Assembly (NCBI GenBank): GCA_039810425.1 | Contig: JBDHWW010000003.1 | Location: 32,001 to 96,000 of the forward strand | Length of the DNA: 64,000 nt | Origin: Pseudobdellovibrionaceae bacterium | Lineage (GTDB): Bacteria > Bdellovibrionota > Bdellovibrionia > Bdellovibrionales > Bdellovibrionaceae | Direction of reading: 5' to 3' | In this document: positions 34,713 through 40,728 of the stretch, piece after piece | Layout: every line of letters starts with the position of its first letter | Position numbering within the stretch: the first letter of the stretch is position 1 | Program-made: the position numbers and the translations under genes | Notes under the pieces: generated by a model | Database searches by the model: none | What the model was told of the DNA's origin: nothing | The model's input: the letters and a program-made list of their open reading frames with translations, nothing else

Positions 34713-34728
34713 AGCAACGTTAGTGCCA
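34713..34728 (-). promoter_or_regulatory. Sigma54 promoter of the fliL-fliA operon
   Basis: TGGCACTAACGTTGCT, close to the consensus TGGCAC-N5-TTGC. Confidence 0.82.
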
Positions 34729-35025: not shown

Positions 35026-36123
35026 TTAATTCGCAAAAACATCTGCACAGCGGGCGTTGAATGGGTTTTGTATTAGTCCCTTCATAACCGCTTGCGCAAA
35101 CCGCGTTTCAATAAAGGTCGTTATCTTCGTGTTATTCAAGTATACGACAAGGCCGACGATACCAGACGTTGCCAAAGCTCCCCACGGGGACAGGCCATAC
35201 ACGCTCGGGCTAAAAAGCATGGCCGTTGCCGCAAAATAACCCAGAAGAATGGATCGTGTCTCCTGCACTCGGCGGAAAACCCATTTCGAAGCCGGCTGAA
35301 TGCGTTCGTCAATCGAAGCAATATTCTCGGACCAGGCAAAGGATGCCACGCTCGACACTAGGCTCATCATTATCGGCACAGTCAACAGATGCATGTCCAC
35401 TGTTCCATCAACGAGTCGATCGAAGGAGAGGAAAGGAACCCGCGATAAGTTAATTAAACTTGAGAGCGCAAAGCTCGAAGTAAACAGCATACTGACGTCT
35501 GCAAAAGACTTCGCTTTAAGTTGGTCTGTTTTATAAATAAATTTGCTAAAAAATGAATAGAAGGGTTTCGTCGCATGGGACCAGCTATCTTTGTTAAGGC
35601 CGAATGCAACTGCGGTCATTACGGTGAAAACTATATTAGCGGTTCTTTCGAAACTCGAAAGATGGCTCGCATGAATCCATACATAAGAATCGACAAGAGT
35701 ATTAAAGGTTACAATCACGAGACCCCATTTATCGGCTTTCGCCGAAGTGACAACCTTCGCAGGATAAGCTCTTAGCAGCGCCGAGAAGTTCTTTGCCTTA
35801 GATTCTTTTCCCGCACGCGGAAGCGGCATCAACGCCACGTTTTCTTTTTTCAACTGAGCCGTACCGACCAAAATGTCTTCTAGATCCGAAGACACGATGA
35901 CATTTTTATCAGTCTTCTCAACGTGTTTTTTAATTTGAGCAAGAACCTCGGCCTCAGAGGCCACTTCCGGCAGCTCGACTTGAATATTCGTCGCCGCACT
36001 ACCCGCCCCAACACTGAGCTGTACAGAGATGTCTTCACGAATAGGAATTCTCTGTTGAGCAAACAGAGTCTCGGCAGAAAAGAAAGCCAGCAGAATAAAA
36101 AGCGATGTGCGACGTACAACCAT
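35026..36123 (-). CDS. Hypothetical membrane protein (signal peptide plus several TM helices)
   Basis: 365-aa ORF 14 nt downstream of the ART-like gene; hydrophobic C-terminal two thirds. Confidence 0.72.
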   Translation of the reverse strand: MVVRRTSLFILLAFFSAETLFAQQRIPIREDISVQLSVGAGSAATNIQVELPEVASEAEVLAQIKKHVEKTDKNVIVSSDLEDILVGTAQLKKENVALMPLPRAGKESKAKNFSALLRAYPAKVVTSAKADKWGLVIVTFNTLVDSYVWIHASHLSSFERTANIVFTVMTAVAFGLNKDSWSHATKPFYSFFSKFIYKTDQLKAKSFADVSMLFTSSFALSSLINLSRVPFLSFDRLVDGTVDMHLLTVPIMMSLVSSVASFAWSENIASIDERIQPASKWVFRRVQETRSILLGYFAATAMLFSPSVYGLSPWGALATSGIVGLVVYLNNTKITTFIETRFAQAVMKGLIQNPFNARCADVFAN

Positions 36124-36137
36124 TTTAAGCCACCTAT

Positions 36138-37163
36138 TTATCGAGTAGGACCGTATGGAACTTCAGCCTTGCAACCCATCACATTTTCTTTCAGCCAATC
36201 AACGACATTGGGGTTCGTGTCGTTCGAAGGCACATCGCTCCAAGTGAGCCTTAAGTAGCCGCTATAAATGCGCCCACTCATCAGTTTGAAAATGGCGTCA
36301 AGAGTGATTCGGTCTGTCTTAGCATCAGGAGTTTGCGAATTAAATATTCTCACATTACTCGGTGAAATTCTCCCGGTTGACGTTAGGACCAGGGCTCTTT
36401 GACCAAAGGGTCCTCGATAGTTTCCGATAGCCGCTGTTTCAGAGCTCGGTGGGACAAGAGCATCACTATTGCATCCCGAAATACTTAAGAAATTACCATA
36501 ATCATAAAAGAAGCCTTCTATATTGAGCTTGTCCTTAAGAACACGGCGTACTGCCAATTTGCATTGATCCCGGTCGCCATAGCCGCTAGGAAGTTGAACC
36601 AAAGCGCTCAGACTCGAAAAGTAGGGGCATTGCTCATTTTGGAAATAGTTGGAAATTTCCGAAGGAAATAACGGAGTATCCTTTACGAGGTCGAGGGTTT
36701 TAAAACCTTTTGGCAGCTGAATTTGAATGAGGACTGCATTACCCGGTCCCCCGCCAAAACTATATGTTTCCATTGGATTTTGCGCAGCATAAAAACCCGG
36801 ACCGTACATGTTATTCATCCCATAATTCGGCGTAGATGCAGGACTGCAATCGTCAGGGTTTAAACTTGAATTTTGCGTTGAACAGTAACTTTGAAAAAAG
36901 CGGGATCCTTGATTTCGAACGTAATTATAGCCAGCATAATCGTAAGCGGAAATAGGAGACTTCCAAAGAGCGTTGCGGTTAGTGGCATCGAACCAATGAA
37001 AAACCATGTAAGGCCTTTTCAGTTCATAAACATATTTCGAGAGGTATTGAACAACTTCAGCCTCACTCGCTACACGACCCTGAAATTGGTTTGTGCTATC
37101 AGTTCGCGCAAATGCCACCGAAAAATTCAGCAATAAGCTGGCAAAAAGGATAAGTTTCGTCAT
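36138..37163 (-). CDS. Exported putative ADP-ribosyltransferase-fold protein, paralog 1
   Basis: Signal peptide; VFHW; MYGPGFYAAQNPMETYSF (Y-X10-F); VLIQIQLPKG; 6 Cys; GAGGA RBS. The CDS is solid; the function is inferred. Confidence 0.65.
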   Translation of the reverse strand: MTKLILFASLLLNFSVAFARTDSTNQFQGRVASEAEVVQYLSKYVYELKRPYMVFHWFDATNRNALWKSPISAYDYAGYNYVRNQGSRFFQSYCSTQNSSLNPDDCSPASTPNYGMNNMYGPGFYAAQNPMETYSFGGGPGNAVLIQIQLPKGFKTLDLVKDTPLFPSEISNYFQNEQCPYFSSLSALVQLPSGYGDRDQCKLAVRRVLKDKLNIEGFFYDYGNFLSISGCNSDALVPPSSETAAIGNYRGPFGQRALVLTSTGRISPSNVRIFNSQTPDAKTDRITLDAIFKLMSGRIYSGYLRLTWSDVPSNDTNPNVVDWLKENVMGCKAEVPYGPTR

Positions 37164-37196
37164 CTTCGTAAATTCCTCTTTCTTCCGTCATCCAAA

Positions 37197-38306
37197 CTAG
37201 GCGCCGCTGAGGTTATTATCGCTAGCGTCTTTTTTCTTGACGTCGTCTTGAGTATTGGAAACATCTGTCGTTGCAGGAATATAAGGAACATCGTCTTGGC
37301 AACCAACTAAATTGTCTTTCATCCACGTTGAAATGTTTCGATCAAGGTCGGCAGCCGTAATGTCTTTCCAAGATTGAAAAAGGCTTCCACTGTAAGCCGA
37401 ACGGAAGGCATTGAAAACACTCAGGATCAAAGCCCGCTCAGCTGTCGCATCCGTGGTTTGTTCGTTATAAACTTTCACGCTGTTCCGTGAAATCTTCGCA
37501 GGATTCGCGAGGATGAAAGCACGACCGTTGAATGGGCCTTGATAGTTTCCAATCGCAGCGGTCTCTACGCTGTTTGCAACCGGCTGCCTATTGCACTCTT
37601 GAAAGTCAATTGCTGAGTAACTATAGAAGAACCCATCCATTTTAAGCTGGTCTTTCAAAATACGACGAGCCGTCATCAAGCAGGAGTCCGAGACAATGTA
37701 ACTGTAATTAGTGTAACCAACTTGAAGCAAACCTGAGATATTTTGAACTGCCACAGAACAGCTAGCCTGAAGGAAGAAGTTTGAAATTTCTCGTGGAAAC
37801 AGTTGGTTATCTTTTGCAACGTCCATCACGCGGTAACCCCGTGGCAATTGAGTTTGCATAAGGACCCAATCGGAGCCGTAACCGCCGTAAGAGAAAGTCG
37901 CGACGGGGTCGATCGAGTTATAGAGAGCCGGGCCGTACATATTAAGTGCGCCATATTTTAAATCAGTCAAATCACCGCAGTCTTTTGGATTGGCGCTTGG
38001 GTTCCTGAATGAACAAAAGGATTGGTAATAGCGGTTGCCAAGGTTTTCAAGATGGTCGTAACCAGAGGGGCTGTTGGAAGCTAATGGACTTGTCCAAACA
38101 GCATTGCGGCCCCTACCATTGAACCAGTGGAAAACCATGTAGGGCTTTTTCAGCTCGTACATATATTTAGCTAAGTACTGAACCACTTCGTTCTCATTAG
38201 CCACTCGTCCTTGAATATTCGCCGAGGTTTGGGCAAGGCCTGTAGATAGGCTCAACACAAGGCCAGCTAAAGTGACAAATTTTGTAATTCTCATGACTAT
38301 ATCCAT
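37197..38306 (-). CDS. Exported putative ADP-ribosyltransferase-fold protein, paralog 2
   Basis: Collinear with paralog 1; VFHW; MYGPALYNSIDPVATFSY (Y-X10-Y); VLMQTQLPRG; the same 6 Cys. The start may be 38294. Confidence 0.65.
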   Translation of the reverse strand: MDIVMRITKFVTLAGLVLSLSTGLAQTSANIQGRVANENEVVQYLAKYMYELKKPYMVFHWFNGRGRNAVWTSPLASNSPSGYDHLENLGNRYYQSFCSFRNPSANPKDCGDLTDLKYGALNMYGPALYNSIDPVATFSYGGYGSDWVLMQTQLPRGYRVMDVAKDNQLFPREISNFFLQASCSVAVQNISGLLQVGYTNYSYIVSDSCLMTARRILKDQLKMDGFFYSYSAIDFQECNRQPVANSVETAAIGNYQGPFNGRAFILANPAKISRNSVKVYNEQTTDATAERALILSVFNAFRSAYSGSLFQSWKDITAADLDRNISTWMKDNLVGCQDDVPYIPATTDVSNTQDDVKKKDASDNNLSGA

Positions 38307-38364
38307 CCTTTAAAGCCGTTTGTTCGATCTGGGATCTCCCGATTCTGTTTTGTAAAAAAGTAAA

Positions 38365-38380
38365 AGCAACGAAGGTGCCA
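38365..38380 (-). promoter_or_regulatory. Sigma54 promoter for the ART-like gene pair
   Basis: TGGCACCTTCGTTGCT, close to the consensus TGGCAC-N5-TTGC. Confidence 0.8.
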
Positions 38381-38429
38381 GTCCTCAGGCTCGTTAACAA
38401 CTCACTCCCAATTGACGATAAGAAGACTT

Positions 38430-40016
38430 ATGAAAACACAATTTTTAGTCCTTCTAATTCCGTTGTTGCTTACAACGTTGTCCCAGGCATCGGACCTGCC
38501 GGCGGCCCTTGTGCCACTTCAGGAGAAACTCTTTCAGACCTCTTATAAGAGCTTCGCCAAAGACTTTAGAACGGCCCATCCCGAGTATAAAATCCCAGCA
38601 GAGGCTAAGGCCCCCGTTTTCAACCCCAAGCTTTCCCGCAACGAGTGGTTGGATCTCTATATAAATACGCTGTTGGCGCAGATTTCTGTTCCGAAGGATC
38701 ACGTGGAGGCATTTAAGGGTTCCGCAAAAGAGATGTTTACGTCTTACTCTCGCAATGTCGGTTTTGCCCGGGTTCCCTTCTTATCCGTTGAGAGCGAACG
38801 TCTTGCGGCGGCAAAGGGCTCGGGTAAAGCAAAGGCCGTGAGGCCGACGACTCTGCCTGAGAGCTACCTTCCGAATCACACGATGGATATGGTTGGATAT
38901 GTAAATGAACGATTCTCGGCGATTCTACAGGACTTCGTGAAGTCGCAAAAGACCCCTCTCTATTTGCACGATAGCAATTGCGCTGATGCTTACGCATTTC
39001 AGCGGAGCGAAGGTTTTAATCAAGCGGTTCGTTTCATGGGCGCGCGAGATAATTCCAATAGCCAATACTTCTTTGCCGTGAATCCGAAAACGTCGGCGTA
39101 CCGCTTCGCGGTTTGTGATTTGCGTGGCCAAGACGACGTCACTCGGATCGTGGCATTGTTAGGCCCGATCTTTAACAAAGCCGGAGCCACTATGGTTTTG
39201 CATCAAGTAAAAGCTCCGATCTTGGCATTCAATAGCAAGGGTCGTGCCTTGAAAGTCCGCTCTCGTGAAGACCGCGTCGTACTTGGTTTTCAGAATACGA
39301 TTTGGTGGGAGTTCTACACCACAAATAAGGAAGATTGGCAACGTATTCCGCTGACGGACGAGGGAACCGATGTTTCACTCTTTGAAAATAAGCGCACAGG
39401 CGCGAATATCATTAGCGTAGAAAACGTCTATGGCGACGACATTGTTGAAGCTCTCGATATCCTTTACAAAAAGGGCTATCGTCGTTTCATCTATATGGGA
39501 AGTTGCGGGGGCTTGGATCCTGAATTCAAAATCGGTGATGTACTGATTCCAAATCGCTTCCTGGATAAAGACAACAAAATCATTGAGTTCAAAAACTCAG
39601 CCGGCCAGAAATACCTAGCTTTGCCAGGCGCTGGGAATATCATTCGTGACACAATTCAAGGCTGGGTGCCGACTTTGGCGGTGGAAACAAAAGATCACAT
39701 GATGGATATGCAAAAGAAAGCCCAAGCGATCGATATTGAAAGCCTTTATTTTGGAAAATTCTTTAATTCTCATGAAGCACTGGAGCAATCCTTGCTAGTC
39801 ACTGTCTCAGACACTCCCCTCGGTCATATGACTTACGAACAAGAAAATGTGACTCGTGGAATTCCAATGAAGAGCATCAAAAGACTTGTGCCACAGATTT
39901 TCGTAACAAAAGTGGAAAAAGAAGACGGGGGAAAACGAGCCGTCGCTTCGAGAAAAGCCACGACCGAGCCACCTGTTATTTGGCTGGGACCGGATCTCTA
40001 TGAGAAGTCCTGGTAA
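38430..40016 (+). CDS. Exported protein with a C-terminal nucleoside phosphorylase / AMP nucleosidase-like (PNP_UDP_1) domain
   Basis: Signal peptide MKTQFLVLLIPLLL..SQA; YMGSCGGL...IGDVLIP, AIDIES and VSD motifs. Confidence 0.7.
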   Translation: MKTQFLVLLIPLLLTTLSQASDLPAALVPLQEKLFQTSYKSFAKDFRTAHPEYKIPAEAKAPVFNPKLSRNEWLDLYINTLLAQISVPKDHVEAFKGSAKEMFTSYSRNVGFARVPFLSVESERLAAAKGSGKAKAVRPTTLPESYLPNHTMDMVGYVNERFSAILQDFVKSQKTPLYLHDSNCADAYAFQRSEGFNQAVRFMGARDNSNSQYFFAVNPKTSAYRFAVCDLRGQDDVTRIVALLGPIFNKAGATMVLHQVKAPILAFNSKGRALKVRSREDRVVLGFQNTIWWEFYTTNKEDWQRIPLTDEGTDVSLFENKRTGANIISVENVYGDDIVEALDILYKKGYRRFIYMGSCGGLDPEFKIGDVLIPNRFLDKDNKIIEFKNSAGQKYLALPGAGNIIRDTIQGWVPTLAVETKDHMMDMQKKAQAIDIESLYFGKFFNSHEALEQSLLVTVSDTPLGHMTYEQENVTRGIPMKSIKRLVPQIFVTKVEKEDGGKRAVASRKATTEPPVIWLGPDLYEKSW

Positions 40017-40039: not shown

Positions 40040-40690
40040 TTAAAAAGTCCCGACGACTTCTTTCAGCCGCTGGAACGTCACCACGTCATTCAAATCAGAT
40101 GAAAAGAAAAACTTTTTGAAACCGGGTGGCACCGGATACTTCCCGGTTTTTAAAACATCCAAGACATACATGCTGCCAAGCTCCTGACAAGCCAGTGATC
40201 CGGCAAGGGCGGGATCAGACAAGCAGTAAGTCGGCATTGAGCCGATACAAATCAGCGCATTGGCCATTTCTCGGTCCGTCTGACAGTAAGCTGGCTGAAC
40301 GCGGGCGCAAGCCAAATCATTGGCGAACTTGCGATCGGTCTGGCAATACGACGGCATGCTACCAGCGCAAGCCAATGAATTCGAGTGCTCTGGTTTTGTC
40401 TGACAGTATACTGGATGGGCGCCAATACATGCGCCGTTGTTCGCAAAAGATTCATTGTTTTGGCAGAAATCCGGTTTAACTCCAGCACAGGAAAGCAAAT
40501 CGGCGGTGCTGTTATCTGAGATGCAATAAGAAGGTCTCGCTCCAATACAAGACAGATTATCGCCGGCAGATTTATCGGTGATACAGAACGAAGGCGGAAT
40601 CGCTCCATGCACAGGGCGTGGGATCAAGACAGTGGCAAGAAATAATATCAGTCCAATTTCTACGAAGAACCACCAAGAATGCCGTTTCAT
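40040..40690 (-). CDS. Exported Cys-repeat hypothetical protein
   Basis: N-terminal hydrophobic signal; seven 20-aa P-x-[YF]-C-x11-C repeats; GGAG RBS before MKRHSWW. Confidence 0.78.
   Translation of the reverse strand: MKRHSWWFFVEIGLILFLATVLIPRPVHGAIPPSFCITDKSAGDNLSCIGARPSYCISDNSTADLLSCAGVKPDFCQNNESFANNGACIGAHPVYCQTKPEHSNSLACAGSMPSYCQTDRKFANDLACARVQPAYCQTDREMANALICIGSMPTYCLSDPALAGSLACQELGSMYVLDVLKTGKYPVPPGFKKFFFSSDLNDVVTFQRLKEVVGTF
40175..40594 (-). repeat. Seven diverged 60-nt coding repeats (20-aa two-cysteine unit)
   Basis: Units include PSFCITDKSAGDNLSCIGAR, PSYCISDNSTADLLSCAGVK and PTYCLSDPALAGSLACQELG. Confidence 0.88.
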
Positions 40691-40728
40691 AACTCCGCCC
40701 TTCCCCAATCACAGGCGGGCGGCAATTC

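Follow-up and report, generated by a model that had tools for sequence, protein, structure and literature searches.

The window analysed here, a 64,000-nucleotide stretch of contig JBDHWW010000003.1 (positions 32,001 to 96,000) from a Pseudobdellovibrionaceae bacterium, carries two tandem genes, P0001 and P0002, whose products belong to an unannotated family of likely exported proteins with a predicted ADP-ribosyltransferase (ART) fold and a His-Tyr-Ala (H-Y-A) triad, encoded in cassettes with Fic or PNP-type genes. Both open reading frames (ORFs) are intact (Table 1), and their products align end to end with 43% identity over 345 aa (E = 2e-106); Met5 may be the true translation start of P0002. 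A first-pass annotation made from the sequence alone had described two collinear paralogs with signal-peptide-like starts, six aligned cysteines and a shared series of motifs, all of which the ORFs and their alignment bear out. Each product has a signal-peptide-like N terminus and six cysteines at aligned positions. The motif VFHW begins at residue 54 in P0001 and 58 in P0002, YGP at 120 and 124, GFFY at 217 and 225, ETAAIG at 242 and 248, and the last-strand motif at 256 (RALVL) and 262 (RAFIL). The key residues discussed below are H56, Y125, T133, F136, and A257 in P0001 and H60, Y129, Y140, and A263 in P0002, the last occupying the position of the triad Glu.

Table 1. Features of the paralog cassette, in window coordinates
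Feature	Coordinates	Strand	Description
Hydrophobic-protein gene	35026-36123	minus	365 aa; co-oriented downstream of P0001, 14-base gap; signal-peptide-like start
P0001 (paralog 1)	36138-37163	minus	intact ORF, 341 aa; predicted ART core
P0002 (paralog 2)	37197-38306	minus	intact ORF, 369 aa; predicted ART-fold domain, six Cys
Sigma54-type -24/-12 site	38366-38380	minus	TGGCAC-N5-TTGC, exact consensus; points at P0002
PNP-type gene	38412-40016	plus	divergent; signal-peptide-bearing product of 528-534 aa; C-terminal PNP/nucleosidase-superfamily domain (PF01048, E = 4e-6)

Predicted fold, active site and export

The family very probably adopts the ART fold, as judged from predicted structure and profile matches that are each weak and all agree. 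An AlphaFold2 model of P0001 built from a 150-sequence alignment (pLDDT 90.2, pTM 0.88) places strands at residues 52-59, 124-127, 143-150, 217-221, 256-260, and 271-274, a six-strand order that we take to be that of the ART core. Foldseek returned nothing at E <= 0.001; its first row was MbcT (E = 5e-3, probability 0.93-0.95), followed by NatT, a homolog of diphtheria toxin (DT), and PARPs, and against viral models ART-PolyVal came first (E = 0.015). With VIA-align, 49 of the 50 listed rows were ART-fold proteins by title or recall, the best being DT (Z = 5.9, root-mean-square deviation [rmsd] 5.1, 146 aligned), with none as high as Z 8. A search of the PDB with the 150-sequence profile, which uses no model, gave five matches, all to PARP13 or PARP12 (best E = 4.7e-5). 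In the ESM Atlas, a cluster of the exotoxin A (ExoA) catalytic domain was the first match (0.84) and ART-PolyVal also appeared, both serving as leads only. The structural comparison called for by the first-pass annotation thus finds the ART split beta-sheet order in the model, though with a best Z of only 5.9, and is consistent with its placement of the pair in the His-Tyr (DT/PARP-like) clade. Family models gave little: PF00644 (PARP catalytic) matched neither P0001 nor P0002 and 1 of 17 relatives (E = 0.02), PF18760 (ART-PolyVal) matched none of the 17 members, and PF08808 (RES) gave no Pfam match, strand 1 bearing His, Asn, or Ser and the neighbours not being Xre genes. The P0001 chain is a single domain, hydrophobic at its N terminus only, with no receptor-binding or translocation domain.

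Conservation is high in the predicted nicotinamide pocket. Among the 150 aligned sequences, which share about 25% identity, Tyr125 is present in all, Thr or Ser at 133 in 149, and Asp129 and Pro130 in 145 each, while position 136 is Tyr (101) or Phe (43) in 144 and aligns with PARP12/13. Position 57 is Trp in 135 and Tyr in 15. The first-strand His is kept in both window copies (H56 and H60), as the first-pass annotation had noted, but it is not invariant: position 56 is Asn in 76 sequences, His in 59, and Ser in 15, whereas in 102 more divergent ORFs taken from genomes it is His in 76, Asn in 8, Arg in 7, and Ser in 6. The proposed Y-X10-Y motif stands for P0002, where the second aromatic is Tyr140; in P0001 an aromatic is kept at the same spacing, but it is Phe136. 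In the model of P0001, His56, Tyr125, and the strand-5 residue are each predicted to lie on the expected strand.

The catalytic Glu of the last strand, reported missing in the first-pass annotation, is indeed replaced: position 257 is Ala in 140 of the 150 sequences and in 71 of the 102 divergent ORFs, with Glu or Asp at 256-257 in five of the former and Glu at 257 in two of the latter. We assign Ala257 to the Glu position because strand 5 (A-F-V-I) aligns with the I/V-F-V-I of PARP12/13, in which the third triad residue is the non-Glu Ile/Val; read from this alignment, the triad of both window proteins is H-Y-A and the catalytic Glu is absent. The Glu of ETAAIG, noted earlier as conserved, is not a candidate substitute, as its column is a gap in 122 of the 150 sequences and Glu in 10, and it belongs to a lineage-specific insertion within a predicted helix (241-245). 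The roles of His, Tyr, and Glu in ARTs are described in the portion of PMC8053099 available to us. According to the text seen of PMC8883491, substrate-assisted catalysis, with an acid borrowed from the substrate, is open to ARTs without Glu, and in the excerpt consulted of PMC6436930, MbcT has Gly at region 3 yet is highly active.

Export by the Sec route is likely for the family. An N-terminal hydrophobic stretch is present in 125 of 143 Met-starting members, versus 1 of 143 in an internal control window, this call resting on a simple hydrophobicity rule rather than SignalP. Cysteines also occur in pairs: Cys94 and Cys106 are both present in 27 and both absent in 123 of the 150 sequences, Cys179 and Cys201 are both present in 149, and Cys231 and Cys331 in 145. 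This co-occurrence points to three disulfides, in P0001 likely 94-106, 179-201, and 231-331, and to an oxidising compartment, so that the disulfide-bonded, exported family proposed earlier appears likely.

Family size, range and annotation status

No model in Pfam, NCBIfam, or PADLOC matched P0001 or P0002, and a single-sequence search of the PDB gave one chance match only. Word-index searches for homologs yielded just 2 and 3 proteins, and a full profile scan was needed: the 17-relative profile found 900 representatives (50% identity) at E <= 0.001, of which 731 were at E <= 1e-10, among 1.84 billion. Taxon labels were present for two of 10 sampled clusters, one Bacteriovoracia and one a metagenome-assembled genome labelled Xanthomonadaceae. 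The 150-sequence profile found members in 60 of 401 genomes of the phylum, the present one included; at most four candidates were scored in each, and copy numbers are therefore lower bounds. A further paralog in the same genome was not found, a match of C2 at E = 0.018 being noise. P0001 had no match in plasmid and phage collections, nor did alignment A1 in viral contigs.

Within the genus of Bdellovibrio bacteriovorus the family occurs in 5 of 26 genomes, and B. bacteriovorus itself has a distant member, P0167 (CAE80589.1, locus Bd2806; E about 1e-9 to 4e-11). None of the full-text papers searched names Bd2806; the locus was not found in the six searchable supplement files of PMC12546842 or in eight of PMC6561027, in which other identifiers may be used. 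Judged by title and abstract opening, literature on Bdellovibrio or predatory bacteria that touches on ADP-ribosyltransferases, PARP, Fic, or nicotinamide adenine dinucleotide (NAD) toxins yielded nothing on the family. Likewise, the main text seen of a comparative genomics study of the phylum (PMC11656739) contains no ADP-ribos, Fic, or toxin word, although its supplements may list the family. With neither a family model nor a description found, the earlier suggestion of a possibly undescribed family still holds.

Architectures vary. Some long proteins (L185:4326-7715; P0020; L188:1355-3955) combine the family domain with ankyrin repeats, TPR repeats, or a phytase-like domain. In one genome (G286, L131:6104-7279), a single TAA stop interrupts the family gene, whereas the Fic gene next to it is intact.

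Gene neighbours, cassettes and promoter

Family genes recur near genes for signal-peptide-bearing Fic or PNP-type proteins, an association new to this work. We fetched 81 loci around family genes with flanks of about 3-6 kb, not taking every family-bearing genome hit; after one duplicate and one locus without a match were dropped, 79 loci from 58 genomes and one metagenome contig were left. A Fic gene with a signal-peptide-like start was present in 17 of them (16 genomes, 11 genera, four families), all 17 over the Pfam Fic cut-off; it lay within 135 bases of the family gene in 15 and was co-oriented with it in 12 of those 15. About 0.2 such neighbours would be expected from our own count of about 42 such genes in about 205 Mb, a single-query underestimate. 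A signal-peptide-bearing PNP-type gene was found in 6 of the 79 loci, plus the window; even if all 192 PF01048 matches are counted, only about 0.8 would be expected. Both enrichment ratios are overstated, since related genomes are not independent. The Fic link is not obligate, and the fetched flanks of 62 loci contained no Fic gene. At least two family ORFs were present in 14 loci, at least one of which holds a split gene. Modelling one family member in complex with NAD and the neighbouring Fic protein gave a score of 0.00, which counts neither way.

The Fic proteins form a family of about 380 aa with a signal-peptide-like start and conserved cysteines (L131:7279-8403, L132:7241-8404, L082:3915-5054, and 14 more; L191-L204) and occur widely across the phylum, whether or not an ART-family gene lies alongside. 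Their HPFxDGNGR motif (Fic motif as given in the part seen of PMC2686095) is mostly intact, H and GNGR being invariant in 25 aligned sequences. Export of an AMPylase would be surprising, since its substrate ATP is found in the cytoplasm. At L202:5276-8149, two 477-aa Fic proteins lie beside an intact family gene and may represent an eroded fusion; their N-terminal stretch is weakly and partially like the middle of the ART family (E = 3e-5 and 6e-4, five-sequence search). Other neighbours also suggest nucleotide transfer. At L076:212-5241 (G340), four co-oriented genes with signal-peptide-like starts encode a divergent PNP-type protein, a 450-aa protein, and two family members; the 450-aa protein has R-type ART-like motifs by eye, with no Pfam or PDB support. 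Pfam identifies SelO at L162:6959-8371 and an IucA/IucC-like protein at L148:3640-5280 (E = 8e-6), and inspection by eye suggests a SelO-like protein at L171:4515-5657 and an R-type ART-like one at L159:2705-3940.

That the PNP-type gene and the downstream hydrophobic-protein gene of the window travel with the paralog pair went unremarked in the first-pass annotation. The hydrophobic-protein gene is likely the third gene of the operon. Its product has four hydrophobic stretches and no known family, and its structural model (pLDDT 49) was too poor for a structure search. It ends in a C-x-x-x-F motif that is also seen in 7 of 104 family ORFs and 3 of 1669 long ORFs of the genome, and it shares with P0001 the heptapeptide VASEAEV near the N terminus.

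A metagenome contig (L121) carries the same block at another genomic site, comprising the PNP-type gene (86%), the sigma54-type site, five paralogs, and the hydrophobic-protein gene (89%, in the same place). P0002 is the ortholog of the first of these five copies (75%) and P0001 of the last (60%), and each groups with its counterpart. Arrays in other genomes each form their own clade, having expanded separately in several lineages. Among 400 genomes of the phylum, the sole further full-length homolog of the PNP-type protein (42%) abuts a five-gene array in G254. A homolog of the hydrophobic-protein gene (24%) lies beside a family gene in G007 and, in five other genomes, not beside one; the gene adjoins a family gene in three places only, namely, the window, L121, and G007.

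The cassette occupies the interval between fliL and suhB (window 35026-40016), a variable slot that holds different or no cargo in each of five relatives; the cassette is absent from it in all five. A flagellar function was rejected, as this slot lacks the cassette in 5/5 relatives and the L121 cassette sits elsewhere. Foreign origin by composition was also rejected, the GC content of the cassette (45%) being only slightly low next to the 46-52% nearby. Beyond the PNP-type gene, window 40040-40708 (minus) encodes a 222-aa Cys-rich repeat protein with a signal-peptide-like start and no family, which is kept at the same slot in G340 and G244.

The sigma54-type site noted earlier before the pair was confirmed as an exact match and is a putative promoter, lying 59 bases upstream of the first ATG of P0002. 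The whole 3.54-Mb genome, in which rpoN was found, has 16 exact sites; by a hand estimate, chance would give about 7 genome-wide and about 2e-4 per given 250-base upstream stretch. The related L121 cassette keeps the site as TGGCAT-N5-TTGC. Sigma54 control does not extend to the family as a trait: a relaxed site was present in the sense direction in 3 of 68 loci, this cassette accounting for two of the three, and in none antisense. A second exact site (window 34714-34728, minus) precedes fliL and is kept in 5/5 relatives, and several of the 16 sites genome-wide precede flagellar or exported-protein genes.

Possible function and relation to known systems

The family resembles several known systems in part. 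With DT, exotoxin A, and cholix it shares the predicted six-strand core, the first-strand His, the G-x-Y-x-A-x-D-P...Y loop, and, in all likelihood, export with disulfides; it differs in having Ala for the catalytic Glu and Trp for the Gly after His, in an identity of about 10% and an rmsd of about 5, in the absence of B domains, and in extra helical and C-terminal parts. PARP12 (H-Y-I) and PARP13 are the sole PDB matches of the family profile and align with it on strand 5, whereas the present proteins are bacterial, bear a putative signal peptide and probable disulfides, have Ala at the third triad position, and lack WWE and zinc-finger domains. The RES toxins MbcT, NatT, and ParT are akin in their top Foldseek rows, in the lack of an acidic residue at region 3, and in a D-G-x-x-Y fourth strand, but here strand 1 has His or Asn rather than Arg, the proteins are probably exported, no Xre antitoxin is adjacent, and the length is about 330 rather than about 180 aa. 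ART-PolyVal (PF18760), from phage polyvalent proteins, has a similar motif order and supplied the top viral Foldseek rows as well as an ESM Atlas lead; it has Glu where the family has Ala, and the family has no Pfam match to it and was not found in the phage, plasmid, or viral collections searched. The ART effectors of type VI secretion and Rhs systems (RhsP2, TreTu, TreX, and Tre23) offer a likely bacterium-versus-bacterium role and weak fold matches (Z = 2.7-4.1), and the family departs from them in predicted Sec-type signal peptides, tandem arrays, and Fic or PNP-type partners, with no Rhs carrier and no adjacent small immunity gene seen. We consider the family likely to be ARTD-clade-like in action yet outside the DT/ExoA toxins, because it has no Glu and no B domains, and outside the PARP, RES, and ART-PolyVal families, because Pfam matches are lacking and the motifs differ.

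We tentatively favour, with somewhat less than even confidence, the reading that P0001 and P0002 are exported, Glu-less mono-ART effectors that bind NAD+ and transfer ADP-ribose onto an acceptor in prey bacteria, because the nicotinamide pocket is kept, the tandem copies have diverged, and pairing with another writer of nucleotide marks recurs. Export would separate the enzymes from the predator's own cytoplasmic NAD+, and therefore no immunity gene would be needed. His56, Tyr125, Thr133, and Phe136 would fix NAD+ in the strained conformation that ARTs impose. With Ala where Glu is usual, the acceptor would be a group that reacts without a base catalyst (carboxylate, phosphate, or thiol), which is the situation in Tpt1, MbcT, and PARPs that lack Glu. 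The tandem copies (43-60% identity) may cover different targets, and joint action with co-encoded exported Fic AMPylases or PNP-type nucleosidases would make the whole a nucleotide-consuming effector cassette.

Several observations weigh against this proposal. Most acceptors, like NAD+ itself, are located in the cytoplasm, where disulfides would be reduced, and an effector would have to cross the prey inner membrane to reach them. This membrane reportedly remains intact (text seen of PMC13689555). The structural scores fall under the tools' own marks, strand 5 taken alone aligns with PARP12/13 at a mere 2-3 bits, 91 of the 150 core members have Asn or Ser in place of the first-strand His, and most bacterial mono-ARTs use Glu or Asp, according to the part available of a preprint (bioRxiv 10.64898/2026.05.07.723553). 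No Fic gene was found in the present genome. When 20 additional Fic loci were inspected, a family gene was present at one and a known array lay near another, while the other 18 had none detected close by. The patchy spread marks the family as accessory and not needed for predation as such. Bd2806 carries a silent flag in the portion used of PMC3627812 supplement 2, with an RPKM (reads per kilobase per million) of 3 in attack phase and 11 after 3 h of growth; the main text of that study, as far as seen, links the attack-phase genes with FliA and contains no discussion of RpoN. Predation by this organism we infer from kinship only, genomes of the same family holding proteins named Bdellovibrio bacteriovorus and Pseudobdellovibrio and the FlhB encoded nearby falling in a cluster with proteins named Bdellovibrionales. 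Activity, target, and delivery into prey are thus proposals drawn from sequence, predicted fold, and gene neighbours.

The same observations can be read in other ways. A fairly unlikely alternative is that the exported proteins deplete prey NAD+ by hydrolysis or phosphorolysis and the PNP-type neighbour depletes adenine nucleotides, causing energy collapse with no macromolecular target. PNP-family ATP nucleosidases are known in phage defence, and a PNP-type gene accompanies the cassette in all three full-length cases with context; the NAD+ phosphorylases MbcT and NatT head the Foldseek rows, RES toxins fill five of the top eight VIA rows, and MbcT chemistry needs no Glu in the passages seen of PMC6436930. 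The essential Arg of MbcT (R27 and R47; PMC6436930, same passages), however, has no conserved strand-1 counterpart here (Arg in 7 of 102), a single NADase would be enough, whereas arrays with as many as five diverged members and the pairing with Fic writers hint at more than one target, and the process would waste a nutrient that the genome seems unable to salvage. That last point also bears on the idea that the proteins scavenge nutrients, cleaving NAD+ leaked from dead prey for reuse of nicotinamide and adenine. Export signals and a nucleosidase neighbour would suit such digestion, but in this 99.9% complete genome no nicotinate/nicotinamide phosphoribosyltransferase and no PnuC were found; NadA was not found either, while NadC and NadE were, and a kynurenine route is presumably a possible source of NAD. 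With Fic partners and diverged arrays also left unexplained, we regard scavenging as highly improbable.

Both window proteins might instead be pseudoenzymes that use the ART fold as a nucleotide- or protein-binding scaffold, for example to pair with, chaperone, or inhibit the co-encoded Fic or PNP-type enzymes within the predator periplasm. The absent Glu, the frequent Asn or Ser for His, and the Trp or Tyr for Gly after His fit this idea, the best sequence match, PARP13, is inactive, the two L202 Fic proteins have their weak, partial family-like stretch, and a free NAD+ pool is not expected in the periplasm. We nevertheless think it unlikely, as the nicotinamide-pocket residues are near invariant at about 25% identity, the His is kept in both window copies and in most of the broader set, and Fic genes are missing from the fetched flanks of most loci and from the present genome. 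Finally, a DT- or exotoxin A-like attack on a host protein in eukaryotes (grazing protists, for example), in which the hydrophobic downstream protein would serve as membrane translocator, would agree with DT and its homologs taking three of the top six VIA rows and with the ExoA-catalytic ESM Atlas lead, and effectors aimed at eukaryotes commonly have signal peptides, disulfides, and Fic partners; but chains of 341-369 aa with no Glu and no receptor-binding or translocation (B) domain, and a supposed translocator gene confined to three places beside a family gene, make this very unlikely.

If the mono-ART reading holds, the family may have a place in prey killing. According to the text seen of PMC13689555, prey are dead 20-25 min after B. 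bacteriovorus has entered, yet their envelope is preserved, and the portions available of the reviews searched name no cytoplasmic toxin for this step. The family supplies named candidates, and its distant member Bd2806 lies in a genetically tractable model strain. More broadly, and with considerable doubt, Bdellovibrionota might hold an undescribed arsenal of Sec-exported nucleotide-writer effectors (H-Y-A ARTs, Fic and SelO-like AMPylases, R-type ARTs, and PNP-type nucleosidases) in shuffled cassettes that would be delivered into the prey cytoplasm and shut prey down in the first half hour of predation, with no immunity proteins needed because folding would occur only after export. An active H-Y-A enzyme, if true, would broaden ART chemistry, H-Y-Q being already treated as new among bacterial toxins in the part seen of the 2026 preprint cited above, and the linked signal-peptide-bearing Fic family offers a second lead. 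Should the proteins prove inactive, they would still represent a large unannotated ART-fold family of the phylum.

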